Source: an uncultured Acidimicrobiaceae bacterium (GTDB lineage: Bacteria; Actinomycetota; Acidimicrobiia; Acidimicrobiales; RAAP-2). From it: DNA of 64,000 bases. The notes beneath the pieces were generated by a model, which was not told the origin of the DNA, ran no database searches, and saw only the letters and a program-made list of their open reading frames with translations. A program made the translations under genes and the position numbers. Shown piece by piece: positions 10,979 to 55,742 of this stretch (positions are counted from its first letter, which is position 1; each line of letters starts with the position of its first letter). Location: positions 1,006,030-1,070,029 of the forward strand of contig CAVZQP010000002.1 in the NCBI GenBank assembly GCA_963777485.1. The letters are read 5' to 3'.

Positions 10979-11730
10979 GTGCGGGTCGCGCTGTGGTCGC
11001 CCGAGGACGGGGTGCAACGTGTGCTCGTCGTGACCGCGCATCCCGATGACGTCGATTTCGGTTCGGCCGGGTCTGTCGCCGCCTTCACCGACGCGGGGCT
11101 CGATGTCACCTATTGCATCGTCACGAACGGTGAGGCGGGTGGTTCCGATCGTGCGATGTCACGGTCCGAGATGGCGGCGCTGCGCCAGGACGAACAGCGG
11201 GCCGCTGCGGCAGTGGTGGGGGTGAGCGACGTGCGGTTCCTCGGCCACCCCGACGGCAGGGTGCAGCCGACCTTCGACCTCCGCCGCGACATCAGCCGTG
11301 TGATCCGCCAGGTCCGCCCTCAGCGCGTCGTGACCCAGTCGCCCGAGCGGGATCTGGGCTTCATCTATGCCAGTCATCCCGACCACCTGGCCGCCGGTGA
11401 GGCGGCCTTGGACGCCGTGTATCCGGACGCCCGGAACCCCTTCGCTCATCCCGAACTGCTCGAGTCGGAGCGTCTCGAACCCTGGACGGTGAACGAGCTT
11501 TGGATCATGGGCCCGGGCAGGCCGGCGCCGACGCCGACTCGATCGCCGTCGAGACGACGAACACGGTGGAACGCAAGGTCTCGGCACTCATGTGCCACAA
11601 GAGCCAGATGCCGGACCCCCCGGACGCGATGGGAGAGCGGATTCGCACCTGGGCGCAGGCGGCGGGGGAGGCGGCGGGCCTCACGGCGGGTCGCTCGGCC
11701 GAGATGTACCGGATCATCCGTATCCCCTGA
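10979..11730 (+). pseudogene. PIG-L/LmbE-family N-acetylglucosaminyl deacetylase, interrupted by a -1 frame break near 11507-11520
   Basis: The N-terminal part (frame of 10979) reads VLVVTAHPDDVDFGSAG...HPDH...ELWIMG. The C-terminal part (frame of 11500) reads ...DSIAVETTNTVERKVSALMCHKSQ...MYRIIRIP*. After ELWIMG the first frame becomes Arg-rich nonsense that overlaps the next gene. Confidence 0.6.
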
Positions 11731-13308: not shown

Positions 13309-13614
13309 ATGGTGACGCCCGCCTTCGACGAGCTCATCCACCCGAGCACACGGTTGTCAATCGTCGCCATCCTTGCGTCGACCGATTGGGCCGATTTCTC
13401 TTTCGTGCGCGACCGGCTTGCCCTGTCGGACTCGGCTCTATCGAAGCAGTTCACGACACTGGAAGAGGCGGGGTATCTCAAAGTCGAACGTGCCTTGTCC
13501 GAACACCGGCGCCGAGTCCGCGTCGCGCTCACGGAAACCGGGCGCCGAGCTTTCGAAGGACACGTGGCAGCGCTGCAGGCGGTCATCGCGGGCGCCGAAC
13601 GTACAACTGTCTGA
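13309..13614 (+). CDS. Winged-helix (ArsR/MarR-like) transcriptional regulator
   Basis: 101 aa. HPSTRLSIVAILAS....F..VRD.L.LSDSALSKQFTTLEEAGYLKVER is the wHTH. It starts 4 nt after the membrane protein gene. Confidence 0.7.
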   Translation: MVTPAFDELIHPSTRLSIVAILASTDWADFSFVRDRLALSDSALSKQFTTLEEAGYLKVERALSEHRRRVRVALTETGRRAFEGHVAALQAVIAGAERTTV

Positions 13615-13800
13615 CTTCGACTCACTCACACCTAGCAACGGGTCCGGTGTCACTCTGCGCTTCGCTGCCGATCCTGGTACTTGATTGCGCATGCGGGCAT
13701 CACAACATGTAGTCGTCCGCCACTCGGGTGGCCACACTAGATGTCGTGACGCGGAAAAAAACTGAGACAGTGTGCAACGGGCGCGTCTATCTTCGCCCCG

Positions 13801-14854
13801 GTGACAGCCAGACATCGCGCCAGAGTTGCTCGTGATCGGACGTGGCCACGCAGCATTGTGATCATGATGACGAGTGGCTTCACCCCGGTGGAAGCGAAGC
13901 ACCGCGCCAAGGTTGTCCGGGATCGGAAGTGGCCACGCAGAGTCGTCATGACGCTGGTGCTCACAAGCGGTCTCATCCCACTGACGAGCGTTGACGCCGC
14001 CGCGAGCGCCGTGATGCCGACGACTTCGCACTACGAGACCGGCGCGTCCGCCGCTGTCCTCAGCAGCCAGGGGCAGGCGGCGGGTAGCTCCGGCACGCAG
14101 GGTCTGGTCGTCTTGGACTTCGGCCGCCCCGCTTCCGACGGGACGAGCGACGGCACCCTGGACTTCTCGCACAACGTCGTCTCGTTCGCAGACATCACCA
14201 CCGGAGTCGAGAGCTACGTCACGGCCTATTACAACGCTGCGCCCGCTGATACGAGGCTCGACGTCGTCATCGGGACGAACGACAGCTGCGGCGTGAACCA
14301 ACCGTGCGGATCGGTCGTGTGCGGATGTCCCGACGAGCCCAGCAGCTACATCACATGGGGGCAGGAGCTCGCAGACACGGTCATGCAACTCAATGCCTGG
14401 TCGGCACGGCGTCGCGTCATCGAGTCGGTTCACCGACACGGTGCACGTCTGGGCCGGCGACGACGCCGAGCCTGCGTTCGACCCGGGATTCGACAACACC
14501 AAGTACGTGATGCAGGGCTACGCGCAAACGGTGGGCGGGAGCTACCCGCCGATGGTGGACTACGGCTCCGCCGATCCCGGGATTTGGACCAACGACGAGC
14601 TCCTCCAGATCGCCAACGGCTTCTCGCCGAACGTCGCCATGCCCGAGATGTACACACCGAGCCAGGTCTCGGAGTGGGCGTCCGTCCTGTCCTACGCCAA
14701 GACGCATGACGGCGAGGACGTCACGCTCTTCGGGGTCATGACCGTGCCGGCCAGCACCGAAGCTCCGCAGAACGCAGCCGCCGACACGCTGGCGGCCCTC
14801 GCTCCCGTCACCGGCCAGAGCACCATCCGCTGGGTGTCGACGATCACACACTGA
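13801..14854 (+). pseudogene. Secreted hypothetical protein, reading frame broken (+1) near 14395-14435
   Basis: Frame 1 reads ...VVMTLVLTSGLIPLTSVDAAASA...VVCGCPDEPSSYITWGQELADTVMQLNAW and then turns into Arg-rich nonsense. Frame 2 continues with plausible protein ...FTDTVHVWAGDDAEPAFDPGFDNTKYVMQGYAQ...IRWVSTITH*. The likely true start is the GTG at 13888. Confidence 0.5.
13811..13975 (+). repeat. In-frame 87-bp imperfect tandem duplication of the signal-peptide coding 5' end
   Basis: catcgcgccagagttgctcgtgatcggacgtggccacgcag (13813-) and caccgcgccaaggttgtccgggatcggaagtggccacgcag (13900-) are 87 nt apart. The peptides are RHRARVARDRTWPRSIVIMMTSG and KHRAKVVRDRKWPRRVVMTLVLTSG. Confidence 0.6.
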
Positions 14855-14899: not shown

Positions 14900-17611
14900 C
14901 TAACCCGCCATCTGTCGGAGCACGTACTGGAGGATCCCACCGTGGCGGTAGTACTCGGCCTCCATCGGGGTGTCGATGCGCACGATCACCCGGAATTCGG
15001 TGACCGAGTCGTCGTCCGACGTCGCGGTGACCGAGACCTCCTTGGGTAGCTCGCCCTTGTTGAGCACGTCGAGCCCGGTGATGGTGAAGCGTTCTCGTCC
15101 CGTGAGCCCCAGGCTCTGGACCGAGTCACCCTTGTAGAACTGCAGCGGCACCACGCCCATGCCGATCAGGTTGGAGCGGTGGATGCGCTCGAGGCTCTGC
15201 GCGATCACCGCGCGCACGCCAAGCAACGCCGTGCCCTTGGCGGCCCAGTCGCGACTGCTCCCTGTCCCGTACTCCCGGCCGGCCAACACCACCAACGGCA
15301 CGTCCTCTTGCCCATACTGCATTGCCGCGTCGTAGATGGAGGTCTGCGCCCCGTCGGGCAGATGCACGGTCACGCCGCCCTCGGTGCCCGGCGCGAGCTG
15401 GTTGCGCAGGCGCACGTTGGCGAACGTTCCGCGCATCATGACCTCGTGGTTGCCGCGTCGAGCGCCGTACGAGTTGAAGTCCCGCCGCTCGACGCCGTGG
15501 TCAACGAGGTACTGCCCCGCCGGCGTCGTGGGACCGATGGAGCCAGCCGGGGAGATGTGGTCCGTCGTGACGCTGTCGCCCACCATCACCAGGACACGCG
15601 CGCCCGTGATGTCGGTCACCGGTGACGGCGTCATCGTCATCGTTTCGAAGAAGGGCGGGTTCTTCACGTAGGTGGAGGCGTCCTGCCATGCGTACGTCTC
15701 ACCGCCCTCGACCTCGACCTCGCCCCAGTATTCGTCGCCGTCGAAGACAGCGCTGTAGCGCGAGCGGAACATGTCGGAGGTGAGCGACGTCCGGATCGTC
15801 TCGCTCACCTCGTCGAGTGAGGGCCACAGGTTGGCGAGCATGACCGGGGTGCCTTCGGCGTCGTGGCCGATGGGCTCGTTCTCGAGGTCGATATCCATCG
15901 TGCCCGCCAGCGCGTACGCCACGACGAGCGGCGGCGAAGCGAGGTAGTTCAGGCGCACGTCCGGGTGGATGCGTCCCTCGAAGTTTCGGTTGCCAGAGAG
16001 GACCGCGGCGACGGCGAGGTCGGCTCCGTTGACGGCATCACTGACGCCATCGAGGAGTGGGCCCGAGTTGCCGATGCACGTGGTGCAGCCGAAACCGACC
16101 AGGTAGAAGCCGAGCTCCTCGAGCGGCTCGGTCAAGCCGGCGCGCTCGAGGTAGTCGACCACCACGCGCGAGCCGGGTGCGAGCGACGTCTTCACCCACG
16201 GCTTCGAACGCAGCCCGAGCGCCACGGCCTTCTTGGCCAGCAGGCCGGCGGCGACGAGCACCTGCGGGTTCGACGTGTTGGTGCAGCTGGTGATGGCCGC
16301 GATCACGACGTCCCCGTCCGCCATCTGGTGGTGCGGGGCTGCGGCGGGCTCGCCGTCTGCCGTCACCGGGGTGCGGTCGAGCGCGGCCCGGAAGGATTCC
16401 CTCGCCGCGGCGAGCCGCACGCGGTCCTGCGGTCGCTTGGGGCCGGCGAGTGAGGGCTCGACGTCGCCCAGGTCGAGACTGAGGTGCTCGGAGTACACGG
16501 GCTCGGGCGAGCTGGCATCGTGCCAGAGCCCCTGGGCCTTGGCGTAGGCCTCGATCAGAGCGACGTGCGCCTCGTCGCGGCCGGTGAAGCGGAGGTAGTC
16601 GAGGGTGACCTGGTCGATCGGGAACATGGTGCACGTGGCCCCGTATTCGGGGCTCATGTTGCCGATGGTGGCCCGGGTCTCGAGCGTGAGGGCCGCGACG
16701 TCGGGTCCGTAGCACTCGACGAACGCGCCGACGACGCCGTGGTCGCGCAGCAACTCGGTCACGGTGAGCACGACGTCGGTGGCGGTGATGCCGGGCTTCG
16801 GCTCGCCGGAGATGCGCAGGCCGACGACCGGCGGCAGGAGCATGGACAGGGGCTGGCCCAACATGGCCGCCTCGGCCTCGATCCCGCCGACACCCCAGCC
16901 GAGCACGCCGAGCCCGTTGACCATGGTGGTGTGTGAGTCGGTGCCGACCAGCGTGTCGCAGAATGCGCGTCCGTCCTCTGTCGCGAACACGAGACGCGAC
17001 AGGTACTCGAGGTTGACCTGGTGGCAGATGCCGGTCCCGGGCGGCACGACGCGGAACCCGTCGAAGGCACCTTGCGCCCAGCGCAACAGCTGGTAACGCT
17101 CCAGGTTGCGCTCGTACTCGATGCTGACGTTGCGGTCGTAGGACTCGGCGTCGCCCGAGCGCTCGATGATGACGGAGTGGTCGATGACCAGCTCGACGGG
17201 GACGAGCGGGTTGACCCGGGAGGCCTTGCCGCCGAGCCGCGCCAGCGCGTCGCGCATGGCGGCCAGGTCGACGACGCCGGGCACGCCGGTGAAGTCCTGC
17301 ATCAGGACGCGCTCGGGGGTCAGCGCGATCTCGTAGGCGCTCTCGCCGGCGCCTTGGCCGTGGCCCTCGGGGTTCGCACCCCACCCGGCGACGGCCACGA
17401 TGTCGTCGGCCGATACGTGAGGGCCGTCCTCGTGGCGCAACAGGTTCTCGAGGATGACCTTGATCGAGTAGGGCAGCCGGTCGATGTCGTGGCGCTCGGC
17501 GAGGGAGGGGGCCTTGATGTTGAAGATCTCGTACGTGCGGTCGCCGACGGACAGGTCGGTCCGGGCGCCGAACGTGTCGGGGTGGGCGTCCGTCGTGGAT
17601 TCGGGGGTCAT
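14900..17611 (-). CDS. acnA: Aconitate hydratase A
   Basis: About 900 aa, with typical blocks ...[13 protein letters not shown]..., [29 protein letters not shown] and a C-terminal swivel domain. ATG at 17611 (MTPESTT...) chosen over the longest ORF. Confidence 0.95.
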
Positions 17612-17673
17612 ACACACATTCTGCCGTGGGTCCCACCGAATCGCCCATTGGCGGGTGTAAAGGCGGCCTTTCG

Positions 17674-17717
17674 CGTTGAACCCACGTTGAACTGGCAATT
17701 CGTAACGTCTTCGTAAC
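17674..17717. promoter_or_regulatory. Four direct-repeat boxes: CGTTGAAC-cca-CGTTGAAC ... TTCGTAAC-gtc-TTCGTAAC (11-nt phasing)
   Basis: Read directly in the 153-bp divergent intergenic region between acnA and the CHAP-domain gene. Confidence 0.35.
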
Positions 17718-17764
17718 CCCACGTACCGGTCGCGCGCGCAACGCAGCGTGCAGAATCTTGAGGC

Positions 17765-23231: not shown

Positions 23232-24188
23232 ATGATTGATCCGGAGCTGGAGGCGGTCCTCGAGTTCATGCCGGTCATCGACCTCGACGACCCGGTAGTG
23301 GCGCGACGCGAGTTCGAGAAGCTGATCGTCGCGATGCGGACGCCGATGCCCGAAGAGGAGCGGCTCGACATCGAGGACCGCTTGATCCCCGGCTGGGAGG
23401 GCGACTCCGAGGTCTCCGTGCGGGTCTACCGCCCGAAAGCGGTCGCCGCGGAGCCGGGCACGACGGTGCCAGGGATCCTCCAGATCCATGGCGGGGGCTT
23501 CATCGTCGGCAGCGTGGAGTCCGAGCATGCGGGCGCGGTGCTCACGGCGGCGAACCTCGGTGCGGTGCTCGTGTCGGTCGAGTACCGCCTGGCACCCGAG
23601 CACCCGTACCCCGCCGGATTGCACGACTGCTACGCGGCGCTGTCCTTCCTCCATGCAGAGGCGGGTGCGCTCGGCGTGGACCCGGAGCGGATCGCGCTGA
23701 TGGGTGCGAGTGCGGGCGGCGGTCTGGCTGCCGCCACCGCCCTGCTGGCCCGCGACCGGGGCGGACCACCGGTCTGCTTCCAGATGCTGCACATCCCCGA
23801 GCTCGACGACCGGCTCGCGACGGCGTCGATGCTGAAGTTCGTGGACTCTCCGCTCTGGAACCGGCCATTGGCGGTGAAGAGCTGGCAGTTCTATCTCGGG
23901 GATCTCTCCGGGACGGGCGACGTGCCCATCTACGCGGCACCGGCGCGGGCGACGGACCTGGCAGGGCTACCGCCGGCCTACGTCTCCACCGCGGAGAACG
24001 ACCCGCTGCGCGACGAGGGCATCGCGTATGCGTTGGCGATGCTGCAGGCCGGCGTGTCGGTCGAGCTGCACCAGTTCCCTGGCACGTTCCATGGCTCGGC
24101 CCTCGTGACAGAGGCGGCGGTGTCGCGCCGTGCGGCGCAGGAGGCGTCGGTCGTCTTGCGTCGGGCGCTGGGAGTGGCCGAGACGTAA
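23232..24188 (+). CDS. Alpha/beta hydrolase, hormone-sensitive-lipase-type esterase
   Basis: Oxyanion HGGGF, nucleophile elbow GASAGG, and a late DPLRDEG plus H motif. Confidence 0.85.
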   Translation: MIDPELEAVLEFMPVIDLDDPVVARREFEKLIVAMRTPMPEEERLDIEDRLIPGWEGDSEVSVRVYRPKAVAAEPGTTVPGILQIHGGGFIVGSVESEHAGAVLTAANLGAVLVSVEYRLAPEHPYPAGLHDCYAALSFLHAEAGALGVDPERIALMGASAGGGLAAATALLARDRGGPPVCFQMLHIPELDDRLATASMLKFVDSPLWNRPLAVKSWQFYLGDLSGTGDVPIYAAPARATDLAGLPPAYVSTAENDPLRDEGIAYALAMLQAGVSVELHQFPGTFHGSALVTEAAVSRRAAQEASVVLRRALGVAET

Positions 24189-24216: not shown

Positions 24217-27200
24217 TTACCAGCCCGTAGCGGCGATGATCGAACCGTTGAGCGCGGTACCGAGCATGGAGCCGTCGTTCGGCGCGTTGCCATAGTTGAC
24301 GACGGCACCGTCGGCCGAGGCCACCCAGTACCCGCCTCCGTCGGCCGTCGTGAAGATCGCGGTGGCGGGGTTGAAACCGCCCATCTGACCGGCCGGGCTC
24401 CCGAAGTTGGCGGCATCGCCGTAGTCGTCGATGGCCCCGTTGGCGAAGAGGACCCAGTACCCGTTTCCGTCAGGGGTGCGCACTGCGGACGTGACCGGCG
24501 AGCCTTGAGGTCCGGGGGCCCCGTAGTACGGGGCGTCACCGAACGTGTAGACGTGGCCGCTCTGGGTCACGAGCCAGTAGCCGTTGCCGCTGGCGTCAGG
24601 CATCACCGCCACGGCCGCACCGGTGCAGCCGCCGATCCCCGGGCAGCTGCCGGCGAAGCGGGCATCGCCGAAGGCGAAGACGCCGCCGTCGGAGGCGACC
24701 ATGAAGTACCCGCGGCCGTCCGCGGACGGCACCATGCCCACAATGGGTGCGTTGAGCGAATTGGGCAACCCCGAGCCGGCTGGGTGGAGCCCGAGCCCGG
24801 GGATCGATCCGTAGAAGCCCGCGTCACCGAAGGCGAAGATCCCTCCGTCCGACGCGTCGAGCCAGTACCCGCCGCGGTCGGCGGTCGGCACGATGCCCAC
24901 GACAGGCCGCTGCAGTCGCAACGAGCCCGTCGAGCCGTAGAACTGGGCCGAGCCGAACGTGAAGATCCCGCCGTCGGAGCCGACCAGCCAGTAGCCGTGG
25001 GTCGGTTGCGGAGGCGGCGGTGGCGGATCGTTGACCACGAGGGTCGTCGTCCCAGACGAGCCTGAGAACAACGGTGTTGCCGGCATACGTTCCGGTGATC
25101 GTGTCGGTGCCGACCGGCGCCGCCGAGGATGTGCAGGAAACGGTGCCGTTCGAGAACGTCACTGTGCAGAGTGGTGTCGATCCTGCCGAGAACGTGAACG
25201 AGCCGCTCGGAGTGGGCACTCCCGGTGGCGGTTGTGGACACCGTTGCCGAGTAGGTGACCGTGGCACCTTGTGTCACGGAAGCGGGGGTCGCGCCGATCG
25301 ACGTCTGTGACGGTGCTTTGTTGACGACGAGTGGCGTCATCCCGGTCGAACCGACGAACACGGAGTCGCCTGTGTACGTCGCCGAGATCGTGTCGGTCCC
25401 GACCGGAGCGAGCGAGGAAGTGCAGGAACCGGAAGCACCGGTTCCCGCACTTGACAACTGCGCGGTGCAGAGTGTCGATCCCGTGGAGAACGTGACCGAC
25501 CCCGTGGGGTTAGATAATCCCGTGACACTCGTCGTCACCGTCGCCGAGTAGGTGACCGAGGTTCCAATGGTCACCGGGCTGGGGCTCGTCGATCGTCGTC
25601 TGTGACGGCTCTTCGACGACGAGGCTCGTCGTCCCGGTCGACCCCGTGAAATTGGTGTCACCGGAATAGGCGCCCGAAATCGTGTCGGTCCCGACCGGGG
25701 CGGCAGCAGTGGAGCTGCACGAACCGCTGCCGTTTGACACAATGTCGGCAGTGCAAAGCGACGTCGATCCTGCCGTGAACGTGACCGACCCAGTCGGAGT
25801 GGGCAATCCCTGGAACGCTCGTCGTCACCGTCGTCGAGTAGGTGACCGAGGATCCCAGCGCCACCGGGCTCGGGGTCGCGCCGATCGAGGTCTGTGTCGA
25901 TGCGGGGTTCACGATGAGGCCCGTCGTCATGTTGGACCCCGAGAACAGGCTGTCGCCGGAGTAGGCACCCGAAATCGTGTCGGTTCCGGCCGGGGCGCAG
26001 CGGTGGAACTGCACGAACCACTGCCGTTCGAGATCAACGTCGCCGTGCACAGCGAGGTTGATCCCGTGGTGAACGTAACCGTCCCAGTCGGGGTGGGAAA
26101 CCCTGAGACGCTGGTCGTGACGGTCGTCGAGTAGGTGACCGAGGATCCCAGCGTCACCGTGCTCGGGCTCACGTCGATCGAGGTCTGCGATGGTGCTTTG
26201 TTGACGACAAGTGGCGCGGTCCCTGTCGAGTGCCCGAAGACGGAGTCGCTCGAGTACGTTCCCGTAATCGTGTCCATACCGGCCGGAGCGGCAGAAGTAC
26301 TACAACTACCGGTGCCGTTCGTCAGCGGCGCCGTGCAGAGCGTGGTCGCACCTGTCGTGAACGTGACCGAGCCGGTCGGGGTGGGCAAACCTGTGACGAC
26401 GCTCGTCACAGTCGCCGCGTAGGTGACCGAGGAACCGAACGTCACCGGGCTGGGGCTCGCGCTAACCGCTGTCTGTGACGCTTCTTCGACGACCAGCGTG
26501 GTCGTGCCGGTTGAAGCCGACAACCCGCTCCGCCCGAATATGTGCCGAAAACAAGGTCGGTGCCGAACGGGGCGGCGGAGGAGCTGCACGAACCGTTGCC
26601 GCTCGACAGTGTCGCGGTACACAGCGGCGTCGACCCCGTCGAGAACGTGACCGAACCGCTCGGGGTTCCACCGGTCACCGTTGCCGAGTAGGTGACCGAC
26701 GATACCCAAGGTCCGACCGGGTTCTGGGCGCTCGCAGTGACCATGGTCCCTGTCGAAGGTTGGCCGTACGTCACGTTGAGGTCGGAAGCGCCCGGGATCG
26801 TCGGAAAGGCAAAGTGGTTGTCTGTGACCCATTCACCATTCGGATGAGCGTCGGCGTGTTACCCGTCGGATTGGATGTCGTGTAGTCGAGATTGGTGAAG
26901 TTCGCGGTGCCGAAGTTCGCGAGTGGCGGCTGACTCGGCTTCTCCGAAGTCATCTCCTCGATCCATTCGGCCGAGTTCGCGGGTTGGCCGTCTGTACCGC
27001 GTCCGCCGTACGGGAAGGAGTTGGTGAAGCTATGGCCCAATGTGTGGTCGGTGATAGAGATGGTCCAAGTTCCCTGCGTCGTAGACGTAGGTGGCGAGAC
27101 CTGGAAGATGTCGGCGGTCATGTGATCGCCGGGATTGACGCCGAAAATATCGGGACTCTCGGCATTCGGGAGGATCTCCCACCAGGCGTCGTAGCTCGCA

Positions 27201-27709
27201 ACCCCCCCTGAAAGGTCCTGTTCGGTGCCGGCCTGAATGAGGTCATGGTTGCTGAACCCGTCGATGCCGATCCACGACGACGACACCGCCGGGACGGAGG
27301 CGACTGGATCGTAGGCACAGTCCACGAGGCGCTGACGCCTGTGTAGGTCGCACCGATCTGCGCCAGCCCGGCCCAGTTGCCGGACGAGCACGTTGGCGGC
27401 TTGCTCGCCCGACAGGTATGGGTTCTGGGCCATCAGCCCGGGGACCCGATGGTCGTAGGTGGGCTGGAGCCCAGTGGTAGTGGGGTGACCCGATACCGAC
27501 CGGGACGTCGGCGCGGCTTGTTCTGCCGGTTGGGCGTGCGACGGCACCGGGACGCTCTGGGCGGCCTGTACTGCTCGTTGGCCGTGCGCCGACGTCGGGA
27601 TGCCCTCGCCAGCCCCGACCGCGGTCGTCCCCCCCAGGAGCACCCCACCCGTGACCAGGACCGCGACCACGAGTTGGCGCGCTGCCTGCCTAACTCTGAT
27701 CAAGTGCAA
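24217..27709 (-). pseudogene. Mosaic surface protein (signal peptide, G1/eqolisin glutamic peptidase, 6 Ig-like repeats, poly-Pro, 6-blade GYWL propeller), readable only across about 9 frame breaks
   Basis: Minus-strand ORFs 26771..27709, 26442..26774, 25927..26832, 25658..26050, 25510..25806, 24603..26021, 24824..25267 and 24217..25086 each carry consecutive pieces of one repeat protein in different frames. See findings for break coordinates. Confidence 0.6.
25035..26775 (-). repeat. Six tandem ~290-bp coding repeats (Ig-like, Big_3_5-type: ..VTYSATVT...PTGSVTFxxGSTxLCTAxL..GSGSCSS.AAPxGTDTIxGxYSGDSxF.GSTG..LVV)
   Basis: The repeat units are read from the translated minus-strand ORF fragments. 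Confidence 0.7.
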
Positions 27710-27826: not shown

Positions 27827-28471
27827 ATGGCGTTCAAGGGCTGGCCGGACACCGCACTGGCCTTCTACGAGGGGCTCGAGGCGGACAACTCGAAGGCCTA
27901 CTGGCTCGACCACAAGGAGGTCTACGAGCGCGACGTCAAGGCGCCGATGGACGCCCTGCTCGCCGAGCTCACCGCCGAGTTCGGCGAGACCAAGCTCTTC
28001 CGCCCGTACCGCGACACCCGCTTCAGCCGGGACAAGTCGCCCTACAAAACGGCGATTGCAGCCACGATCGGATCGGGCTATGTCCAACTGTCGGCCGACG
28101 GCCTGTTCGCCGGCGGCGGGACGTACCACATGATGCCGGACCAGCTCGCCCGCTTCCGGAAGGCGATCGACGCCGACAAGTCCGGCAAGGACCTCGAGAA
28201 GGTCATCGCCACCGTGACGAAGTCCGGCCTCGACGTGCACGCGCCCGAGGAGCTCAAGACGGCGCCGAAGGGCTACCCCAAGGACCACCGGCGCATCGCA
28301 TTGTTGCGGATGAAGGGCCTCGTAGCCGCGCGCTCGTGGGAGCCGGCTACGTGGCTCCGAACCGCCGGCGCCAAGAAGCGCGTCGTCGAAACACTGCGCG
28401 CCACCAATCCGCTCCTCACGTGGCTCGAGGCCAACGTCGGCCCCTCGACCGAGATCGAGGGGCCGCGCTAA
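27827..28471 (+). CDS. DUF2461 (TIGR02453) family protein
   Basis: MAFKGWPDTALAFYEGLEADNSKAYW...FRPYRDTRFSRDKSPYKT... is the family hallmark. Internal ATG at 27827 chosen. Confidence 0.75.
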   Translation: MAFKGWPDTALAFYEGLEADNSKAYWLDHKEVYERDVKAPMDALLAELTAEFGETKLFRPYRDTRFSRDKSPYKTAIAATIGSGYVQLSADGLFAGGGTYHMMPDQLARFRKAIDADKSGKDLEKVIATVTKSGLDVHAPEELKTAPKGYPKDHRRIALLRMKGLVAARSWEPATWLRTAGAKKRVVETLRATNPLLTWLEANVGPSTEIEGPR

Positions 28472-28486: not shown

Positions 28487-29281
28487 CTACGCCGCCCGGA
28501 ACGAGGTCATCGAGAGCGAACCGTAGGCGTATCCGTCGACCACCACCTCCGGCCGCACGCCCGACGCCGCCGCCAGCCCGGCGAAGTACACGAACGGGAT
28601 GAAGTGATCGGGCGTCGGCACAGCGTGTTGGTAGTCGGCATGCCGGGTGAGCTTCAACACGTCGGCCGGCGTGTCGAGCACCATGGCGCGCGCCGACTCG
28701 TCGAAGCGCTCCGCCCAGTCGTACGCCCCGTCAGGCTGGCTCCAGTCGATCACGCGCAGGTTGTGGACCACGTTGCCGCTCGCCAGAATCAGCACGCCGC
28801 GCGTGCGCAGCGGTGCGAGGCGCCGGGCCAGGTCCAGATGCGAGTCGAGCGGTTCGAGCGAGTTGATCGCCAACTGGACGACCGGCACGTCCGCCTTCGG
28901 GTACATGTGGGTCAGCACGGACCAGGCACCGTGGTCGATGCCCCAGCTGTCGGAGTCGAGGCCGACCCAGCGCGGCTTGACCACCTCGGCCACCTCCGCC
29001 GCGACCTCCGGCGAGCCCGGGCACGGGTACTGCACCTCGAAGAGCTCGTCGGGAAAGCCGAAGAAGTCGTGGATGGTCCGGGGCTCGGACATCGCCGTGA
29101 CCGCCGTCGCGTTGGTGTACCAGTGCGCCGAGATGCACAGCACCGCCCGTGGCGGCTCCGGCAGCGCCGCCGTCACATCCGCCCACGCCTCGGTGAAGCG
29201 GTTGTGCTGCAGGGCGTTCATCGGGTTCCCGTGGCCGACGAACACCACGGGCATTGCAGTGGCCTCGGCGCGGGGCTTCAT
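28487..29281 (-). CDS. Class III extradiol dioxygenase, 4,5-DOPA-dioxygenase (YgiD)-like
   Basis: [15 protein letters not shown]...ISAHW...[13 protein letters not shown]. An alternative start at 29254 has the better SD. Confidence 0.8.
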
Positions 29282-29310: not shown

Positions 29311-30294
29311 TTAGGCCGCGGCCGCCTTCACCTCGGTTGCTTCGTCCGCGCTCGACAGCGCCTTCCACAACGCGAAGTAGCTGGGGTACGTGATGGCGCC
29401 GGTCACGTAGCCGGCGCGCTCGAGCTCGGCGTGGAAGGCCGGCAGGTTCCGCCACGGCACGCCCATGTCGACATGGTGGGCCAGGTGCCAGCCGGTGTTG
29501 TACGGCACGATCCAGAACCGTGCCGCCCACGACTGCCGCACGTTGTGCGTCGTCGCCCGCCGGTCAGGGCTGCGCTCCATGCCGCCGTGCTCTGCGATGG
29601 AGCGCAGGCGGTTGATGACGCGCCACTCGGTCATCCAAGGAAGGAACCACAAGAGCGGATAGACCCACCAGCGACCTGTCGCCGCCCACATCGCCGCCCA
29701 CAGCAGGACCTGCACGGCGAAGATCGAGAGACCGATGGGGCGGAACGGGCCCTTGCGCGCCGTGTTCTTCACGAGCGGTACGAAATTCTTCCAGCCGCTG
29801 ATGCCGACGGCGTCGCGGAACAGGCGGCGGTACAGCGCCCGCTGCGTGCAGGGGTAGGGCCCGTAGAACGCGATGTCCGGCTCGTCCGGCCCGAACTCGT
29901 CTTTGTGGTGCGCGAAGTGGACCCGCCGGTACAACTGCACCGGCGTGAAGACCGGGTAGGCCACGACCCATTTGCCGATGAAGTCGTTCCACCGTTTGTT
30001 GGTGAACAGCAGCTTGTGCGCCGCCTCGTGCATCAAAATGGCGAAGCGGGCGTACATCGGGCCCATGAGCACGAACGCCAGCAGGTAGCTCCACCACTGA
30101 CCGAGCCAGACGGCGCCGCCGATGATGACGGCCACCCAGAACCAGACCATGAAGACGGAGAGGGCGTTGCGCGCGTTGGGGATGCGCCGCAGGTCGCCCC
30201 GCAGCGCCGGGATCGCCATGCCGTTCGCCAGCAGGCGCTCGCTCGGCAGGACCTCGGGCCGGTCGACGACGGGAGGCACCATGGTGCTCGCCAT
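29311..30294 (-). CDS. Membrane fatty-acid desaturase family protein
   Basis: Three His boxes (HEAAHK, HFAHHK, HLAHHVD) and hydrophobic N-terminal TM segments. Confidence 0.85.
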   Translation of the reverse strand: MASTMVPPVVDRPEVLPSERLLANGMAIPALRGDLRRIPNARNALSVFMVWFWVAVIIGGAVWLGQWWSYLLAFVLMGPMYARFAILMHEAAHKLLFTNKRWNDFIGKWVVAYPVFTPVQLYRRVHFAHHKDEFGPDEPDIAFYGPYPCTQRALYRRLFRDAVGISGWKNFVPLVKNTARKGPFRPIGLSIFAVQVLLWAAMWAATGRWWVYPLLWFLPWMTEWRVINRLRSIAEHGGMERSPDRRATTHNVRQSWAARFWIVPYNTGWHLAHHVDMGVPWRNLPAFHAELERAGYVTGAITYPSYFALWKALSSADEATEVKAAAA

Positions 30295-30323: not shown

Positions 30324-31097
30324 ATGCAACCTCGTAATAGCCCTCGCACCGCGCCAGGTCCTGGGCGTCCCCTCACCGCCCGGTCGGTGATGGCCAGCGC
30401 CCTCCTCGGCATGGATCCACCCGAGCTCCCCGTCGCCCAGCTAGTCCGCCTCACCGGCCTCTTCGGTATCAGCGAGAACCGCGCCCGGGTTGCCCTCAGC
30501 CGCATGGTCGGCGCCGGCGAGGCCACGTCCGACGGCGCCGGCCGCTACCGCCTGACCGGTCACCTGGCCGCCCGCCAGACGCGCCAGTCGGCGAGCCGCG
30601 CCGGCCTCACGACCGACTACGAAGGCTCGTGGTGGCTGGCCGTCGTGACGACGACCGGCAGCACAGCCGAGGTCCGCGGCGCCCGGCGTCGCGCTCTCAC
30701 CTATGCCCGGCTCGCCGAGTTCAGGGAAGGCGTGTGGATGCGGCCGGCCAACGTCGCCGTATCGCTCCCGGACTCCCTGCACGGCGACATCGAACTGATG
30801 ACCGCGGTCCCACCCGACGCGGGCCTGCTCGCCGGACGTCTGTGGGACCTCTCCGGTTGGGCGCGGCACGCCAACAAGCTCCAGGCCGCACTCGATGTGC
30901 TCCCGCCCGACGGCCCCGAGGCGCTGGCGCCGGGGTTCGAGCTCTCGGCCGCCGTGCTCCGGCATCTGCAGGCCGACCCGTTGCTCCCCGTGCAGCTGCA
31001 GCCGTCGCACTGGCCCGGTTCCCTTCTGCGACAGTCCTATGACGAGTGGGACGCGCGTTACCGCGCCACGCTCCGTTCCTGGAGCCGCGACAGCTGA
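30324..31097 (+). CDS. PaaX-family transcriptional regulator
   Basis: N-terminal wHTH ...LVRLTGLFGISENRARVALSRMVGAGE.., middle/C-terminal PaaX-like ..EGVWMRP..L.. region. Divergent from the desaturase with only a 29-bp AT-rich spacer. Confidence 0.75.
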   Translation: MQPRNSPRTAPGPGRPLTARSVMASALLGMDPPELPVAQLVRLTGLFGISENRARVALSRMVGAGEATSDGAGRYRLTGHLAARQTRQSASRAGLTTDYEGSWWLAVVTTTGSTAEVRGARRRALTYARLAEFREGVWMRPANVAVSLPDSLHGDIELMTAVPPDAGLLAGRLWDLSGWARHANKLQAALDVLPPDGPEALAPGFELSAAVLRHLQADPLLPVQLQPSHWPGSLLRQSYDEWDARYRATLRSWSRDS

Positions 31098-39861: not shown

Positions 39862-40650
39862 ATGAAGCGTTTTCTGTCGTTGTTCGCGCTGTTGCCGATG
39901 TTGTTCATGTTCTCTTCGGTTGCCGGTGCAGCCTCGGCGGCCGTGCCGGAGGTGTTCCACAGTCCGATCAATATCTTGGGCGTCGAGCACAACAATGTGA
40001 GCTCGACAAACTGGTCGGGCTACGCGGTCGAGTCACCGAGCCAGTTCAGCGAAGTGACGGGCACCTGGGTCGAGCCGACGGCGTCATGCACCACCAGTGG
40101 GCACACGTACGCCGCCTTCTGGGTCGGCCTCGACGGCTACAACAGCAAGTCGGTGGAGCAGCTCGGAACGGACTCCGACTGCACGAAGGCCAACTCGCCC
40201 TCCTATTACGCGTGGTACGAGATGTACCCCGCCGCGTCGGTCAGCATCTCGACCACCACGTACCCGGTCAAGCCGGGTGACACGATGACCGCCTCAGTCA
40301 CCCGTTCGGGCACCAGCTACACCTTGGCCATCACGAGCAGCGAAGGCTGGACGTTCTCCACGACCCAGACCGGCAGCGACGCCAACAGCTCGGCTGAATG
40401 GATCGCCGAGGCGCCGGACACCTGCCTGTTGGTCTTCTGCAGCAACGCCCACCTGTCGAACTTCGGCACAGTCACGTTCTCGAGCTCCGAGGCCGCCACG
40501 GGTGGCGCCCTCCAGCCGGTGTCGTCCTTCACGACCAACAGCGGTCCGCACGACATCACGATGGCGACCAGCAGCGGGGTCACGCGGGCACAGCCCAGCG
40601 CCCTCACCGCGAGCGGCACAGGGTTCAGCGATACCTGGCATCACAACTAG
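39862..40650 (+). CDS. Secreted G1-family (eqolisin, Peptidase_A4) glutamic endopeptidase homologue
   Basis: Signal peptide MKRFLSLFALLPMLFMFSSVAGAASA. Motifs NWSGYAV, GTWVEPT, FWVGLDG, VEQLGT (candidate catalytic Gln) and SAEWIAE (candidate catalytic Glu). Confidence 0.8.
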   Translation: MKRFLSLFALLPMLFMFSSVAGAASAAVPEVFHSPINILGVEHNNVSSTNWSGYAVESPSQFSEVTGTWVEPTASCTTSGHTYAAFWVGLDGYNSKSVEQLGTDSDCTKANSPSYYAWYEMYPAASVSISTTTYPVKPGDTMTASVTRSGTSYTLAITSSEGWTFSTTQTGSDANSSAEWIAEAPDTCLLVFCSNAHLSNFGTVTFSSSEAATGGALQPVSSFTTNSGPHDITMATSSGVTRAQPSALTASGTGFSDTWHHN

Positions 40651-46976: not shown

Positions 46977-48653
46977 ATGCCTATGCGAAGTGGTGCAGCG
47001 AAAACGACAGCTGGGGCGGGCGGACAGCTCGTGACGTCGACCCCGGGTGCTGGCAACGGCTCCGACGGAGCACCCGAGGGATTCGACATCAAGGCCGGCG
47101 GCCTCGGATCAGCGGCTCAGTCCATCGCGCTGGCGACGTTGTGTGCGGTCCTGTTCCTCACTTTCTTGGACAACACCATCGTCAGTGTCGGTCTGGCCAA
47201 CGTTCAGAGCGACCTGCATGCGGGAGTCACCTCGTTGCAGTGGGTCGTCAACGGCTACGCCCTGACCTTTGCAAGCTTCATGCTCGCCGCGGGGATGCTG
47301 GGTGATCTGCTCGGCCGTAAGCGGATCATGCTCGCCGGCGTCGCCGTCTTCAGCATCGGATCGGTAATCGGAGCCCTCGCGGGCAACGTCGACTGGTTGA
47401 TCGCGGCGCGGGTCATCATGGGAATCGGCGCCGCGGCCAGCGAGCCCGGAACCCTTTCGATCATCCGCCACGTCTACCCCGACCGGAAGACCCGGGCGGA
47501 TGCCCTCGGAGTCTGGGCCGCGGTCTCCGGGCTCGCCCTCGCGCTCGGTCCCGTTATCGGCGGTGCCCTCGTGGGATTCTCCAGCTGGAGAGCCATCTTC
47601 TGGTTCAACCTCGGCTTCGGCGTCATCGCGTTCGTGATGGCTGCGATAGCGGTGCCGGAGTCTTCGGACCGCCGGGGGCAGCGGTTCGACGTGCTCGGGT
47701 TCATCTTCGGGGCCGCCTTCTTGGGCTGCCTGTCGTTTGCCGTCATCCAGGGTGAGGAGTCCGGCTACGGAACCGACTGGATCGTCGCCCTCTTCGTGCT
47801 GTGCGGTGTCTCTGGCATTGCGTTCGTGGTGACCGAGCATCGCGTCAAGTCGCCAATGCTCGACCTTTCGCTGTTCCGACGGCCGCCTTTCACCGGGTCG
47901 AACTTCGTCGCGTTCGCCGCCTACTTCGGGACATTCTCAATCTTCTTCTTCACCGCGTTGTATCTGCAGGTGGTGGCCAACGCATCGGCTTATCAGACGG
48001 CGATCGACTTTCTGCCCATGGCCGCCGGGCTGATCATCGTCTCCGCGCTCACCGGCCCGCTGGTGGCCCGCATCGGTGCGCGTTGGCCCATGACGATCGG
48101 ATGTCTCCTCGGAGGTGGCGGCATCTTGATCGCCAACGTCGTGTTGGACCCGACGGTCGGATTCGCGACGTTGGGCTGGGTCCTGCCCATCGCCGGCATC
48201 GGTATTGGCATGCTGCTGGTGCCGGTCACGTCCGTCCCGTTGACGGTTGTCCCACCCGAGCGATCGGGCATGGCCGCATCGGCGACCAACACCAGCCGCG
48301 AGATGGGTGCCGTATTCGGCGTGGCCATCCTCGGCTCCATCGTCAACGCCAAGCTCACCGGCGACCTTGCGGCCCGGCTCAAGGCGATCGGGATCCCGCC
48401 CAATTTCCAGAGCTTGGTGGAGCATGCGATCCAGACCGGCGGCGCCTCCAGCGGAGGTGCCGCGAGCAGCGCGGAACACTCAAAGAACGCAACGGTGGCT
48501 GAGATCGCGAAGAAGGTCGTCAATGCCGCATACGACGCGTTCGGTTCAGGGTTGCACGAGGCGCTCCTGGTATCGGGCTGTCTCATCCTGGCGGGCGCGG
48601 TCGTCGCGTTCTTCACGATCCACCGCGTGCGCGGCGAAACCTACGAACTCTGA
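46977..48653 (+). CDS. MFS transporter, DHA2 (14-TMS, EmrB/QacA-like) drug:H+ antiporter family
   Basis: ...FLDNTIVSVGLANVQSDL..., LGDLLGRKRIMLAG (motif A-like), about 14 hydrophobic segments. Confidence 0.85.
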   Translation: MPMRSGAAKTTAGAGGQLVTSTPGAGNGSDGAPEGFDIKAGGLGSAAQSIALATLCAVLFLTFLDNTIVSVGLANVQSDLHAGVTSLQWVVNGYALTFASFMLAAGMLGDLLGRKRIMLAGVAVFSIGSVIGALAGNVDWLIAARVIMGIGAAASEPGTLSIIRHVYPDRKTRADALGVWAAVSGLALALGPVIGGALVGFSSWRAIFWFNLGFGVIAFVMAAIAVPESSDRRGQRFDVLGFIFGAAFLGCLSFAVIQGEESGYGTDWIVALFVLCGVSGIAFVVTEHRVKSPMLDLSLFRRPPFTGSNFVAFAAYFGTFSIFFFTALYLQVVANASAYQTAIDFLPMAAGLIIVSALTGPLVARIGARWPMTIGCLLGGGGILIANVVLDPTVGFATLGWVLPIAGIGIGMLLVPVTSVPLTVVPPERSGMAASATNTSREMGAVFGVAILGSIVNAKLTGDLAARLKAIGIPPNFQSLVEHAIQTGGASSGGAASSAEHSKNATVAEIAKKVVNAAYDAFGSGLHEALLVSGCLILAGAVVAFFTIHRVRGETYEL

Positions 48654-49385
48654 TCAGCCGTGCCGGGTTGTTGATGAGGTGGCGGAACGCCCCTCGACAT
48701 GGCGAGCTCCGACCGTCACCAGCTTCTCGGTTTCGTCACGGCGTTCGGGTGGCGGCCACGGCCCGACGGCTGCGGCCAGGAACGAGGAGTTGGGCACTTT
48801 GAGCTGTCCCTGTTCCGTGAGCACCGAGACGTAGGTCAAGCTCATGGACGTGACCGTCCCGTAGAACTCGCCTCCGAGAGCCCCTGAGCGCACCCGGATG
48901 TAGTTGCCGACAGAAATCGGGCGGGCCAGGAGCAGGACGAACCCGGCGAAGACGTTGCCCAAACTCTGTTGTGCAGCGATCCCGAGGACGACGCCAGCGA
49001 TCGCACCACCCAGGAGGAAATGACCGACCGGGACGGACAGCAGGGACAGCGTTCCGATCAGTGCGACGAGATACCCGAAGCCGGTCACAAGCATGTGCAC
49101 CGCGGCTGCAGCCGTCTGGCCGCCTCGCCACTTGGCGAGATCGTCGAGTTCGGACGCGATCGACCGTGCACATGCAACGACGAGGATCATGAAACCGACG
49201 GCGGGTGTGTAGAGGAGCAGGCGTCCGCCAAGCGTGTGCGCGTGATGCGATGCCAGCGATGATCCGACTACCAGTACGAGGACTGCTCCCGCCCCCGTGG
49301 CCAGGGCGCGTCGAAACCGGGGGCGACGGACGAGCTCGCGAGTCGGGTCAACCACCGAGACGCGCCCGCCGCGGCGCAGCCTCAC
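48654..49385 (-). CDS. Mechanosensitive ion channel (MscS) family protein
   Basis: ...QQSLGNVFAGFVLLLARPISVGNYIRV... is the MscS TM3/beta-domain junction. Confidence 0.8.
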   Translation of the reverse strand: MRLRRGGRVSVVDPTRELVRRPRFRRALATGAGAVLVLVVGSSLASHHAHTLGGRLLLYTPAVGFMILVVACARSIASELDDLAKWRGGQTAAAAVHMLVTGFGYLVALIGTLSLLSVPVGHFLLGGAIAGVVLGIAAQQSLGNVFAGFVLLLARPISVGNYIRVRSGALGGEFYGTVTSMSLTYVSVLTEQGQLKVPNSSFLAAAVGPWPPPERRDETEKLVTVGARHVEGRSATSSTTRHG

Positions 49386-49849
49386 TGACCTCGACGGATG
49401 CGCAGCCTGCCCTTGCTCTCCTTCTTCGAGCGCGACGAGCGGCTTGTCGAGCTCTCAGTGGCTACGAGCAAGAGGCCACCGAAAAGACCGAGGTTCTTCG
49501 CAAAGTGGGCGAGCTGCATGTTGCGCGCGTCTTCGTCCAGCTCTTCCCAAAATCGGTGTCCAGCCAGGGTCGTGGGGACGAGTGTCCCCGCGAGCACGGC
49601 CGCAGACAGACGCCGAAAGATGCCGATCGACAACATTGCGCCCGCAACAACCTGCGTGATCCCGTTCAACCGCACCAGGGTTTCGGTGTCGTCGGGCAGG
49701 GCCGTGACCCGCTCCGCGATCGGCCCAGTGACCTTCTCAGCCTTCTTGACCTTCCCCTCAGGATGCATCGCCGCGTCGAGACCGCCCCGAATGAAGATGG
49801 ACGCGATCAGCGGGCTCGCTACCCGGGTGGTGATGCTGCTCATCGGCAT
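49382..49849 (-). CDS. DoxX-family membrane protein
   Basis: ...ASIFIRGGLDA...QVVAGAMLSIG...LAGHRFWE...FAKNLGLFGGLLLV. Confidence 0.8.
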   Translation of the reverse strand: MPMSSITTRVASPLIASIFIRGGLDAAMHPEGKVKKAEKVTGPIAERVTALPDDTETLVRLNGITQVVAGAMLSIGIFRRLSAAVLAGTLVPTTLAGHRFWEELDEDARNMQLAHFAKNLGLFGGLLLVATESSTSRSSRSKKESKGRLRIRRGQ

Positions 49850-50293
49850 GGCGATTCCTTTCCTTCGGGGGCATGGCCGGCGCTGAGGCGGCGGTTGTGC
49901 CCGGTAATCACGTACCCCCGTCGGCGTCGATCAATCGGTTTTGATCTGGCTTTGAGCGAGTGAACAGGAGGCTCGGCCGTGACGCGCAGGGCTCGGGCCG
50001 ACAAACACCCTTTGCGCCGATGGTTTCCGACCATTTCCTGCGAGGTTCTTCGGATGGGATATCGCTGGCCGGTGCGCTGACGGCGCCTCCGGCGTCGAAC
50101 GGCAGCAGCGTGGTCCGTGATCGGACGGGAGGAGGCCGTACAAGGCGTTCGGGCTGGTCGCAGCAGCGAAGGCTGAGCGCCCCGGGTGCTTAAGCCAGTC
50201 GAGCCGTCACGGTCTTCGTGGTCCCCCTCAGTTGCCTGCCAATTCAGATGCCGCGGCCTGGTCGAGGTTTGTCCTTTGGCGATCCAACACAGA

Positions 50294-51367
50294 TCAGCTT
50301 CGGTGTGGCCCAGTGGCGGTCGCAACTCCGGCGAACCCGCGCGATGATCGCCTCTGGTGTTCAGCGATTGCATGCTGGTAGACGCCGACATACGCGTCGA
50401 CCATGCGGTCACTGCTGAACCTTTGCACAGCCACGTCTCGCACTGTCTGCCGGTCGAACTGACCGACTCGCATGATTGCCGCAGCCGCCGAAGCGACGTC
50501 CGACACCAGAGAGCCAGTCGTGCCGTCGACGACGAGTTCGGGCATGGAACCTCGGTCGAATGCGATCACGGGTGTGCCACACGCCATGGCCTCCACGACC
50601 GAGAGCCCGAACGGCTCGTCAAAGTCGATCAAATGAAGAAGGGCCAGGGCGCCCCCGAGGAAGGACGAGCGATCCTCGGCACGGACGGGCCCCTCGAATC
50701 GCACGCGATCGCCGTCCAGGCGTGGCACGATCTCCCGCCTGAAGTACCGATCATCTTGAACGATTCCTGCTAAACGGATCGGGATCCCCGTCTTTTCGGC
50801 GGCATCGATCGCCGCGACCACTCCCTTGTCCGGGTGGATACGTCCGAAGAAGGCCAGGTAGGAACCAGCAGTCGGGCTGAACTTGAAGTTGCCTGTCTCT
50901 ATCCCGTGATGGATCGTCGCCACATAGTCGAGGGCGGGGTGCCGGTCGGCATCGCTGATCGCGACATAGAACGTGCTCTGGTTGTACTTGGCGAACACCG
51001 GCACGATGTGTCGCGAAGAGAAGCCGTGAATTGTCGTGACGACCGGCGTTGACACCAACGCGGAGTAGGTGAGGGGCAGGAAGTCAAAGCTGTTGTGGAT
51101 GACGTCGAACTCAGACGCCCGTTCAAAGACCTGCGATATATGCAGACATTCGGCCACTTTCGGGTCGATAGTCGGGTCCTCCGACCAGCCCCGGGACACC
51201 ACGCTGCACAACCGTGCCGACGTTTCGGAGTCGCCCGCAGCGAACAAGGTGACTTCGTGCCCCCGAGCCACGAGGCCTTCGGTGAGGAGTGAGGCGAAGA
51301 GCTCCCACGGTCCGTAGTGGCGCGGCGGGACACGCCATGCAATCGGCGCGAGGACTGCAACGCGCAT
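50294..51367 (-). CDS. Glycosyltransferase family 4 (GT-B, Glycos_transf_1)
   Basis: MRVAVLAPIAWRVPPRHYGPWE... at the N-terminus and ...EPFGLSVVEAMACGTPVIA.. (E-x7-E region). Confidence 0.85.
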   Translation of the reverse strand: MRVAVLAPIAWRVPPRHYGPWELFASLLTEGLVARGHEVTLFAAGDSETSARLCSVVSRGWSEDPTIDPKVAECLHISQVFERASEFDVIHNSFDFLPLTYSALVSTPVVTTIHGFSSRHIVPVFAKYNQSTFYVAISDADRHPALDYVATIHHGIETGNFKFSPTAGSYLAFFGRIHPDKGVVAAIDAAEKTGIPIRLAGIVQDDRYFRREIVPRLDGDRVRFEGPVRAEDRSSFLGGALALLHLIDFDEPFGLSVVEAMACGTPVIAFDRGSMPELVVDGTTGSLVSDVASAAAAIMRVGQFDRQTVRDVAVQRFSSDRMVDAYVGVYQHAIAEHQRRSSRGFAGVATATGPHRS

Positions 51368-51373
51368 TAGGCC

Positions 51374-51505: not shown

Positions 51506-51538
51506 TGTGTTCTCCAGTCATTCCAGTTGATACACGAG

Positions 51539-55734: not shown

Positions 55735-55742
55735 GCATCTCC

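Follow-up and report, generated by a model that had tools for sequence, protein, structure and literature searches.

At positions 24217-27709 of the window (the whole 64,000-nt stretch of DNA that was analyzed, from a 1.48-Mb contig of an uncultured Acidimicrobiaceae bacterium), the minus strand encodes a large surface-type protein that can be read through only if the frame is changed nine times. This raises the question of whether the organism carries a broken gene or whether an intact gene was broken in the deposited sequence.

For the reading of the gene, the minus strand was translated in three frames and the in-frame segments were then stitched explicitly. GC3 frame plots (120-nt windows) were too noisy here, and a codon log-odds tracker was used in their place. 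Codon usage was atypical in the Ig region of the gene. The stitched gene starts with TTG at 27709, stops at 24217-24219 and yields a product of 1162 aa from ten in-frame segments (27706-27392, 27390-27292, 27292-26807, 26807-26523, 26523-25993, 25990-25808, 25806-25588, 25586-25221, 25219-25073, and 25071-24220). An earlier sequence-only reading of this DNA had listed nine frame changes and no in-frame stop. All nine changes were found, each within the interval proposed for it, and the stitched frames of 24217-27709 contained no stop codon. Its description of the shifts as single-nucleotide held for most of them, but not for those at 26813 (+2) and 25999 (+2 or -1). The gene, its breaks and its domains were as follows.

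24217-27709, minus strand: the entire gene in its deposited form; nine frame changes are required for a reading of 1162 codons (three-frame translation and stitching; colinear with intact orthologues)
27600-27709, minus strand: predicted signal peptide or signal anchor at the N-terminus, MHLIRVRQAARQLVVAVLVTGGVLLGGTTAVGAG, then a low-complexity leader (from the sequence; conserved in orthologues)
26834-27378, minus strand: G1 glutamic peptidase domain (Peptidase_A4; Pfam), containing breaks 1 and 2
25030-26759, minus strand: six Ig-like repeats of ~95 aa each (Big_3_5; Pfam), containing breaks 4-9
25000-25029, minus strand: poly-proline linker DPPPPPPQPT (stitched sequence)
24220-24999, minus strand: six GYW(L/V)...DGG(I/V)F.FGDA repeats, beta-propeller-like, with no break
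27386-27392, minus strand: break 1, +1, extra G in AACGT[G]CTCG (orthologue comparison)
27288-27295, minus strand: break 2, -1, CCGTC-CCGG against CCGTCGCCGG in orthologues
26807-26816, minus strand: break 3, +2, ACCAC[TT]TGCC
26523-26530, minus strand: break 4, -1, GGAG-CGGG against GGAGCCGGG
25990-26002, minus strand: break 5, +2 or -1, within GCGCCCCGGCCGG
25804-25810, minus strand: break 6, +1, CCAGGG[A]TTGCCC
25584-25598, minus strand: break 7, +1, GAC[G]AGCCCC, or -2/-5, varying with the orthologue compared
25219-25228, minus strand: break 8, +1, ACCGG[G]AGTG
25069-25075, minus strand: break 9, +1, ACCG[T]TGTTC

An additional compensated indel pair at 26702 and 26724 was not counted; it was seen against the orthologue L082 but not against L083, and it is therefore ambiguous.

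The proposed order of domains (signal peptide, G1 peptidase, six Ig-like repeats, proline linker and six GYWL repeats) was borne out. Once breaks 1 and 2 were repaired, and only then, residues 111-292 matched Peptidase_A4, the family of the G1 (eqolisin) scytalidoglutamic and aspergilloglutamic peptidases (PDB 1S2B and 1Y43; PF01828), well above the cutoff (111.5 bits, with a Pfam cutoff of 22.3, over positions 2-185 of the 206-position profile). Both catalytic residues, the Gln in LIQAG and the Glu in AEWIEE, were kept and were invariant in the orthologues; they correspond to Q53 (ILQTG) and E136 (AEFIIE) of scytalidopepsin B. In alignments to 1s2b_A and 1y43_B, the LIQAG glutamine and the second glutamate of WIEE fell on the catalytic residues. 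The repaired domain is thus most likely a glutamic endopeptidase with both catalytic residues, as predicted from its sequence.

The Ig-like region matched Big_3_5 (PF16640) in six stretches (232.8 bits versus a cutoff of 35.5), and its DNA repeated with a period of 293 bp at about 75% matches. No Pfam model matched the C-terminal GYWL repeats, a domain that was 91-94% identical to its orthologues. Its AlphaFold2 model (pLDDT 68, pTM 0.68) was all-beta, each of its six repeats having three to four strands, and all Foldseek matches to this model were WD40-type propellers, at TM 0.5-0.62 and only 10-16% identity. The C-terminal domain is thus a putative six-bladed, beta-propeller-like fold. The G1 enzymes characterized so far are secreted proteins of one domain, mostly from fungi, whereas here the peptidase is joined to the six Ig-like repeats, the proline linker and the propeller-like domain. 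In our searches, this peptidase-Ig-propeller-like architecture was found only in Acidimicrobiaceae/Acidimicrobiales metagenome sequences. A single-domain G1 peptidase paralogue also lies within the window, at 39862-40650.

Colinearity with an intact homologue had been named beforehand as a check on the stitched reading. The stitched protein aligned colinearly with many intact syntenic orthologues from Acidimicrobiaceae metagenomes, at 68-83% identity, and the reading thereby withstood its own test. These orthologues, named "G1 family glutamic endopeptidase" by NCBI, were uninterrupted in L082, L083, L006 and a dozen further proteins, and the members of clusters P0002 and P0006 were likewise intact for this gene. 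In nucleotide alignments, the window differed from any intact orthologue by 9-11 gaps of a length that is not a multiple of 3, versus 0, rarely 2, between intact orthologues. Protein searches for a near-identical copy across the junctions returned nothing above 83% identity; this is weak evidence, since the contig of the window itself seems to be missing from the search sets.

The same gene was also broken in a second long-read assembly. The orthologue in L011, from another species, was frameshifted six times, at sites of its own; two of these shifts hit codons that are also broken in the window, namely the codon damaged in break 4 and the position equivalent to break 5. L011 is MFD05521.bin.2.58, a metagenome-assembled genome (MAG) obtained from Nanopore R10.4.1 reads with Flye and one round of Medaka, and the MFD MAGs nearest to the window likewise come from Nanopore data alone, with a single Medaka round (PMC12313526). 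Housekeeping genes of these MAGs show such breaks too: in L001, L005 and L011, frameshifts were found in the esterase or ABC genes that flank the target, genes that are intact in the window. For the target gene itself L001 is an exception, an error-prone Nanopore MAG in which it is intact. Residual indels are known to cause frameshift errors in Nanopore consensus sequences, and above about 40x coverage, polishing with Illumina reads improves the consensus only slightly (PMC9262707).

Taken together, the nine breaks are quite probably consensus or polishing errors of a long-read MAG, in a gene that evolves fast and is rich in internal repeats. The organism itself would then most likely carry this gene unbroken, at about 1160 codons, and its product would be secreted or displayed at the cell surface, with a signal peptide, a peptidase, an Ig stalk, a proline linker and a propeller-like binding domain. 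The 1.48-Mb contig presumably belongs to a long-read MAG, and the small indels would have been introduced during consensus calling or polishing. Their pile-up in this gene may reflect that no other locus of the neighborhood evolves as fast or is as repetitive internally, because at such a locus divergent alleles of co-occurring strains may have been collapsed or the chosen allele thinly covered. Indel errors of long-read-only assemblies likewise split conserved genes into adjacent reading frames that are whole in relatives and in short-read assemblies.

Several observations speak against an artefact. The target gene is whole in the Nanopore MAG L001, and it is nearly invariant among five alleles of a related species. 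The indels also lie away from long homopolymers and simple motifs, the usual sites of Nanopore errors. Runs of 3 or more bases adjoined 4 of the 11 indels versus a background of 21%, which was not significant. None of seven motifs (CCGG, GGCC, GCGC, CGCG, GATC, CCWGG, and GCCGGC) was significantly associated with the 11 indels, the best being CCGG (P = 0.08). Classical Nanopore errors fall in long homopolymers across the genome, whereas those seen here were not homopolymer-linked, were biased toward insertions and were concentrated in one repetitive gene.

Frameshifts elsewhere in the window, on the other hand, speak for an assembly artefact. The neighbors had been described as intact; this was true of the flanking genes and of the long reading frames named, but not of two other genes.

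11504-11520, plus strand: PIG-L/LmbE-type deacetylase gene at about 11.5 kb, frameshifted by -1 within ATGGGCCCGGGCAGG
14406-14408, plus strand: frameshift +1 (G at 14408) with an adjacent G>A at 14406, in the gene of a conserved 301-aa protein

A Logan contig (L085, run SRR28023748) that was 99.5% identical over 1.76 kb encoded an intact 301-aa protein, and the extra G at 14408, beside a substitution, was the sole indel between it and the window. Exact look-ups of the predicted repaired PIG-L protein (five alternative starts) and of the neighboring GATase found no match. Two more candidate frameshifts were dismissed: the one at 45.8 kb turned out to be a normal ArsR/AHSA1 gene pair, and the one at 39.9-40.6 kb an intact stand-alone G1 peptidase. 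Rfam and tRNA scans of the window returned only a tRNA-Arg and no rRNA, nothing that bears on the frameshifts. The target gene thus held 9 shifts in 3.5 kb versus 2 in about 60.5 kb for the rest of the window, roughly a 75-fold enrichment. From these counts, 0.115 shifts would be expected in the gene (Poisson P of about 1e-14). The claim that the lesions are concentrated here was confirmed; the accompanying argument that sequencing noise would be uniform was weakened, because noise is also present elsewhere in the window.

The strongest rival to consensus error is a genuine, very recent pseudogene, in which nine real small indels arose after the protease or adhesin lost its function. The breaks do stand in the deposited sequence, fragments of the gene appear among the public gene calls of the contig, the density of shifts and their unlikeness to typical homopolymer errors would fit, and surface-protein genes are often targets of inactivation. 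Bacterial surface-protein pseudogenes likewise combine a large repetitive gene, several frameshifts and whole flanking genes. However, selection on the gene gave a different picture. Pairwise dN/dS was determined domain by domain between the window copy and four intact orthologues, and in all three domains the values equaled those of intact-intact pairs: 0.27-0.37 for the peptidase, 0.31-0.33 for the Ig region, and 0.08-0.11 for the C-terminal domain, although every one of the nine shifts lies upstream of its 780 nt. Counted at positions where the remaining sequences are conserved, lineage-specific amino acid changes numbered 25 in the window copy and 29-57 in the intact orthologues. Relaxed purifying selection on the window copy was thus detected neither by dN/dS nor by lineage-specific replacements, which disfavors a recently inactivated gene. 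Neutral decay would also not give nine indels while leaving substitutions at their usual level.

The indel spectrum and the comparison of assemblies point the same way. Insertions outnumbered deletions by 6-7 to 2-3 in the window gene and by 4-5 to 1-2 in the L011 orthologue. Real bacterial pseudogenes show a deletion bias, as Mira, Ochman and Moran reportedly described in 2001. The insertion excess in both copies is the opposite of this bias. Multiply frameshifted adhesin pseudogenes show relaxed constraint, stop codons and deletion bias, and the window gene shows none of these. In addition, the six frameshifts of the second long-read MAG are independent and belong to another species, while about ten orthologues from other assemblies, some of them demonstrably short-read, are intact, and the window's own assembly has at least one frameshift that is missing from an independent near-identical contig. 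A genuine pseudogene is therefore unlikely. Thus, of the three explanations left open by the sequence-only reading, consensus error and collapsed heterogeneity stand, whereas recent inactivation lost ground for want of relaxed selection.

A related and improbable reading takes both the nine indels of the window and the six of L011 as real. In soil Acidimicrobiaceae the gene would then be either a hotspot at which insertion-biased frameshifts arise rapidly or a case of very recent inactivation in parallel, too recent for relaxed selection to show.

Real heterogeneity of the locus was also considered. Many natural alleles, with shuffled repeats, length variants and possibly frameshifts, would coexist, and the consensus would be a chimera found in no single cell. 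This reading overlaps with consensus error in a repetitive gene; it blames biology-driven diversity rather than base-calling noise. The gene does diverge faster than its flanks (77-86% versus 85-93% nucleotide identity to relatives), the number of Ig-like repeats ranges from five to seven among orthologues, and eight of the nine broken codons vary between orthologues, compared with 57% as background (P of about 0.05). Logan contigs L081 and L086, from two runs and from independent, near-identical strains that differ by 0.2-0.6%, both end 140-200 nt inside the gene, at 27511 and 27570, before break 1. Strains 99.4-99.8% identical to the window occur in runs SRR28023748 and ERR11594406. The variable codons and the contig ends fit consensus error as well. 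In a related species, however, five alleles from different contigs were 99% identical and differed only in the length of the poly-proline linker, so the gene is not hypervariable within every species, and the proposed mechanism is itself conjectural. Real heterogeneity as the cause appears quite improbable.

Programmed recoding (ribosomal frameshifting or transcriptional slippage), by which the protein would be made despite the breaks, has a negligible chance: nothing specific favors it beyond the stop-free stitched frames, the nine sites mix +1, +2 and -1 shifts with no slippery motif or sequence context found in common, and in the orthologues a single frame suffices for the same protein.

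If the breaks are consensus or polishing errors, as we favor, they matter mainly as a caution about data quality: in public long-read MAGs, frameshifts can be dense and locally clustered despite clean-looking flanks, and repetitive, fast-evolving surface-protein genes affected in this way enter the databases as fragments or pseudogenes. If the breaks are real, they would mean that two soil species had lost a conserved surface protease in parallel and very recently. The repaired gene would extend known families only modestly, as a fusion of a G1 peptidase, Ig repeats and a propeller-like domain that is specific to Acidimicrobiaceae and still annotated as hypothetical.

In minus-strand translation of 24217-27709, recognisable protein was carried by all three frames by turns, and none was open throughout. 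When ten in-frame segments were joined, a 1162-aa product was obtained in which no stop codon was found. Each switch point in this target gene was pinned on the nucleotide sequence, and the breaks are numbered from its 5' end.

Frame switches in the target gene, with the shift relative to orthologues
~27389, minus strand: frame switch 1, +1
~27292, minus strand: frame switch 2, -1
~26813, minus strand: frame switch 3, +2
~26527, minus strand: frame switch 4, -1
~25999, minus strand: frame switch 5, +2 (or -1)
~25806, minus strand: frame switch 6, +1
~25588, minus strand: frame switch 7, +1
~25225, minus strand: frame switch 8, +1
~25071, minus strand: frame switch 9, +1

The nine breaks reported by the sequence-only reading were confirmed by stitching and orthologue alignments; all nine switch points lay within its intervals, and its reconstructed frames were free of stops. 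Pairwise nucleotide alignments of the window with each intact orthologue contained 9-11 gaps that were not multiples of three, whereas gaps between intact orthologues were solely multiples of three. Eight of the nine breaks fell in codons variable among orthologues (P ~0.05), and no link to homopolymers or simple motifs was found for the window indels tested. Fragments of the gene figure as ORFs in the public gene calls of the 1.48-Mb contig.

A protein search returned many uninterrupted full-length homologues (1017-1217 aa) whose architecture matched that of the stitched protein, which was colinear with them end to end, through all nine junctions, at 72-83% identity. A scan of species-representative genomes located the family in uncultured Acidimicrobiaceae/Acidimicrobiales. 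Five of those loci (L001, L002, L005, L006, and L011) carried the window's flanking genes, with neighbour proteins 73-97% identical to the window's, and the flanking esterase and DUF2461 genes were present in loci L082 and L083.

Neighbourhood common to the syntenic relatives, at its window coordinates
23232-24188: Abhydrolase_3 esterase gene
24217-27709, minus strand: target gene
27827-28471: DUF2461 gene, adjoining the target gene
28487-29281: LigB-type dioxygenase
29311-30294: fatty-acid desaturase
30324-31097: PaaX-like regulator

The target gene evolves faster than its flanks, and its repeat number varies between relatives. The orthologue was uninterrupted in L082, L083, L006, and several more metagenome contigs. 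In one related species (protein cluster P0002), five 99%-identical alleles on separate contigs all had an uninterrupted gene. Their poly-proline linker before the propeller-like domain ranges from 7 to 9 Pro (alignment A3), a small natural length polymorphism. In the window, the leader of the gene contains a 48-bp tandem duplication at 27499-27600 (2.1 copies, 78% matches), which doubles a ...PSHAQPAEQAAP... segment; this stretch is missing from several orthologues.

According to the codon-usage frame tracker and the ORF table, most of the window consists of long single-frame genes. The surroundings of the target gene had been described as intact. This holds for the long ORFs, including one of 940 aa at 14900-17722 (read as acnA) and four of 419-676 aa, among them the ABC exporters, but two other genes were frameshifted.

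Frameshifted genes elsewhere in the window
10979-11730, plus strand: PIG-L/LmbE-type deacetylase gene, -1 frameshift in ATGGGCCCGGGCAGG, break at ~11,504-11,520
13948-14854, plus strand: gene for a conserved 301-aa protein, extra G at 14408, frame change at about 14,406-14,430, break placed at 14406-14408

The repaired deacetylase aligned to PDB homologues (5bmo and 8bgn) across the junction to the conserved HKSQ motif. The 301-aa protein matched no Pfam family; both halves of its gene, in two frames, were matched by homologues of 300-330 aa, and hundreds of intact relatives, up to 90% identical, were found. Short Logan contigs from runs SRR28023748 and ERR11594406, located by exact look-ups, were 99.4-99.8% identical to the window, with no indels over flanking genes. 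One of them (L085, from SRR28023748; 99.5% identical) spans the gene at 14.4 kb and encodes the 301-aa protein intact; a single indel separates it from the window, namely the window's additional G at 14408, and a substitution lies two positions from that G. Therefore, at least one frameshift of the window assembly is missing from a near-identical genome. The reported concentration of lesions is real (9 in 3.5 kb versus at least 2 in the other ~60.5 kb), yet the assembly carries frameshifts elsewhere too.

Two further frameshift suspects were normal genes. One was an intact stand-alone G1 glutamic peptidase paralogue (39862-40650, plus strand; 262 aa, own signal peptide, Peptidase_A4 109 bits), where the codon model flips strands because of unusual codon composition (GC1 0.45, GC3 0.88). 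GC content is high throughout the window (62-73%). A stretch at ~48600-57200 with lower GC (62-65%) and weakly host-like codon usage, around the window's only tRNA gene (tRNA-Arg(CCG), 55550-55622, minus strand), may be an acquired island.

A similar pattern was seen in a Nanopore MAG of a different species with ~85% DNA identity (MFD05521.bin.2.58), whose orthologue (L011:10001-13469) had six frameshifts, with few in its flanks; two of the six share codons with window breaks 4 and 5. The MFD MAGs were built from Nanopore R10.4.1 reads by Flye assembly and one Medaka round (PMC12313526), and residual indels causing frameshift errors are documented in Nanopore consensus (PMC9262707). In the MFD MAG locus L001, the esterase and ABC-transporter genes beside the orthologue (~13390-14350 and 15200-17000) were split over two or three frames, as was the ABC gene in L005 and L011, whereas both genes were whole in the window and L006. 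Most likely, the target gene is intact in the cell and its breaks are consensus errors of a long-read metagenome assembly. We infer the window's sequencing platform from its closest relatives.

A real, very recent pseudogene is unlikely. The repaired CDS was compared with four intact orthologues, domain by domain (Nei-Gojobori). The dN/dS was 0.27-0.37 for the peptidase, 0.31-0.33 for the Ig repeats, and 0.08-0.11 for the C-terminal propeller-like domain, equal in every domain to that among intact orthologues; the last domain is strongly constrained, though it would be untranslated were the shifts real. In bacterial pseudogene decay, nine neutral indels are expected alongside tens of substitutions. 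Such an excess was not visible in the window copy, which had 25 unique replacements at positions conserved among the four orthologues, versus 29-57 in intact orthologues. Insertions outnumbered deletions in both broken copies (window and L011), unlike natural decay.

Still less probable is real population heterogeneity with broken alleles included. Two Logan contigs entering the target gene ended 140-200 nt inside it, at 27570 and 27511, at or beside the leader duplication, before any junction; this is compatible with local heterogeneity and proves nothing. Programmed recoding is not credible.

For consensus errors, clustering in this gene could arise if co-occurring strain alleles were collapsed or the assembled allele was thinly covered, because the gene is fast-evolving, variable in repeat number, and internally repetitive. 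Against consensus errors stand the indel contexts, which are atypical for Nanopore, the whole orthologue in the Nanopore MAG L001, and the near lack of allelic diversity in the P0002 species.

The domain anatomy proposed earlier was correct, since the Pfam, repeat, peptidase-alignment, and C-terminal model results agreed. The stitched protein contained one Peptidase_A4 (G1 glutamic peptidase) domain, in which both catalytic residues, Gln and Glu, were matched on alignment with aspergillopepsin II and scytalidopepsin B, and six Big_3_5 Ig-like repeats with a 293-bp period (Tandem Repeats Finder). The C-terminal 260 residues form six GYW(L/V)...DGG.F.FGDA units, for which no Pfam family was found; AlphaFold2 modelled them at moderate confidence (pLDDT 68) as a sixfold repeat with three to four strands per unit, and all PDB neighbours of the model were WD40-type propellers. 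Judging from these features, the protein is probably Sec-exported or membrane-anchored, with a predicted acid-type glutamic endopeptidase at the N-terminus on an Ig-like stalk and a C-terminal propeller-like module for putative binding. Most probably, the "broken gene" is not a real feature of the organism. The finding is useful as a warning that frameshifts can cluster in long-read MAGs, and it also points to an uncharacterised G1-peptidase/Ig/propeller architecture.
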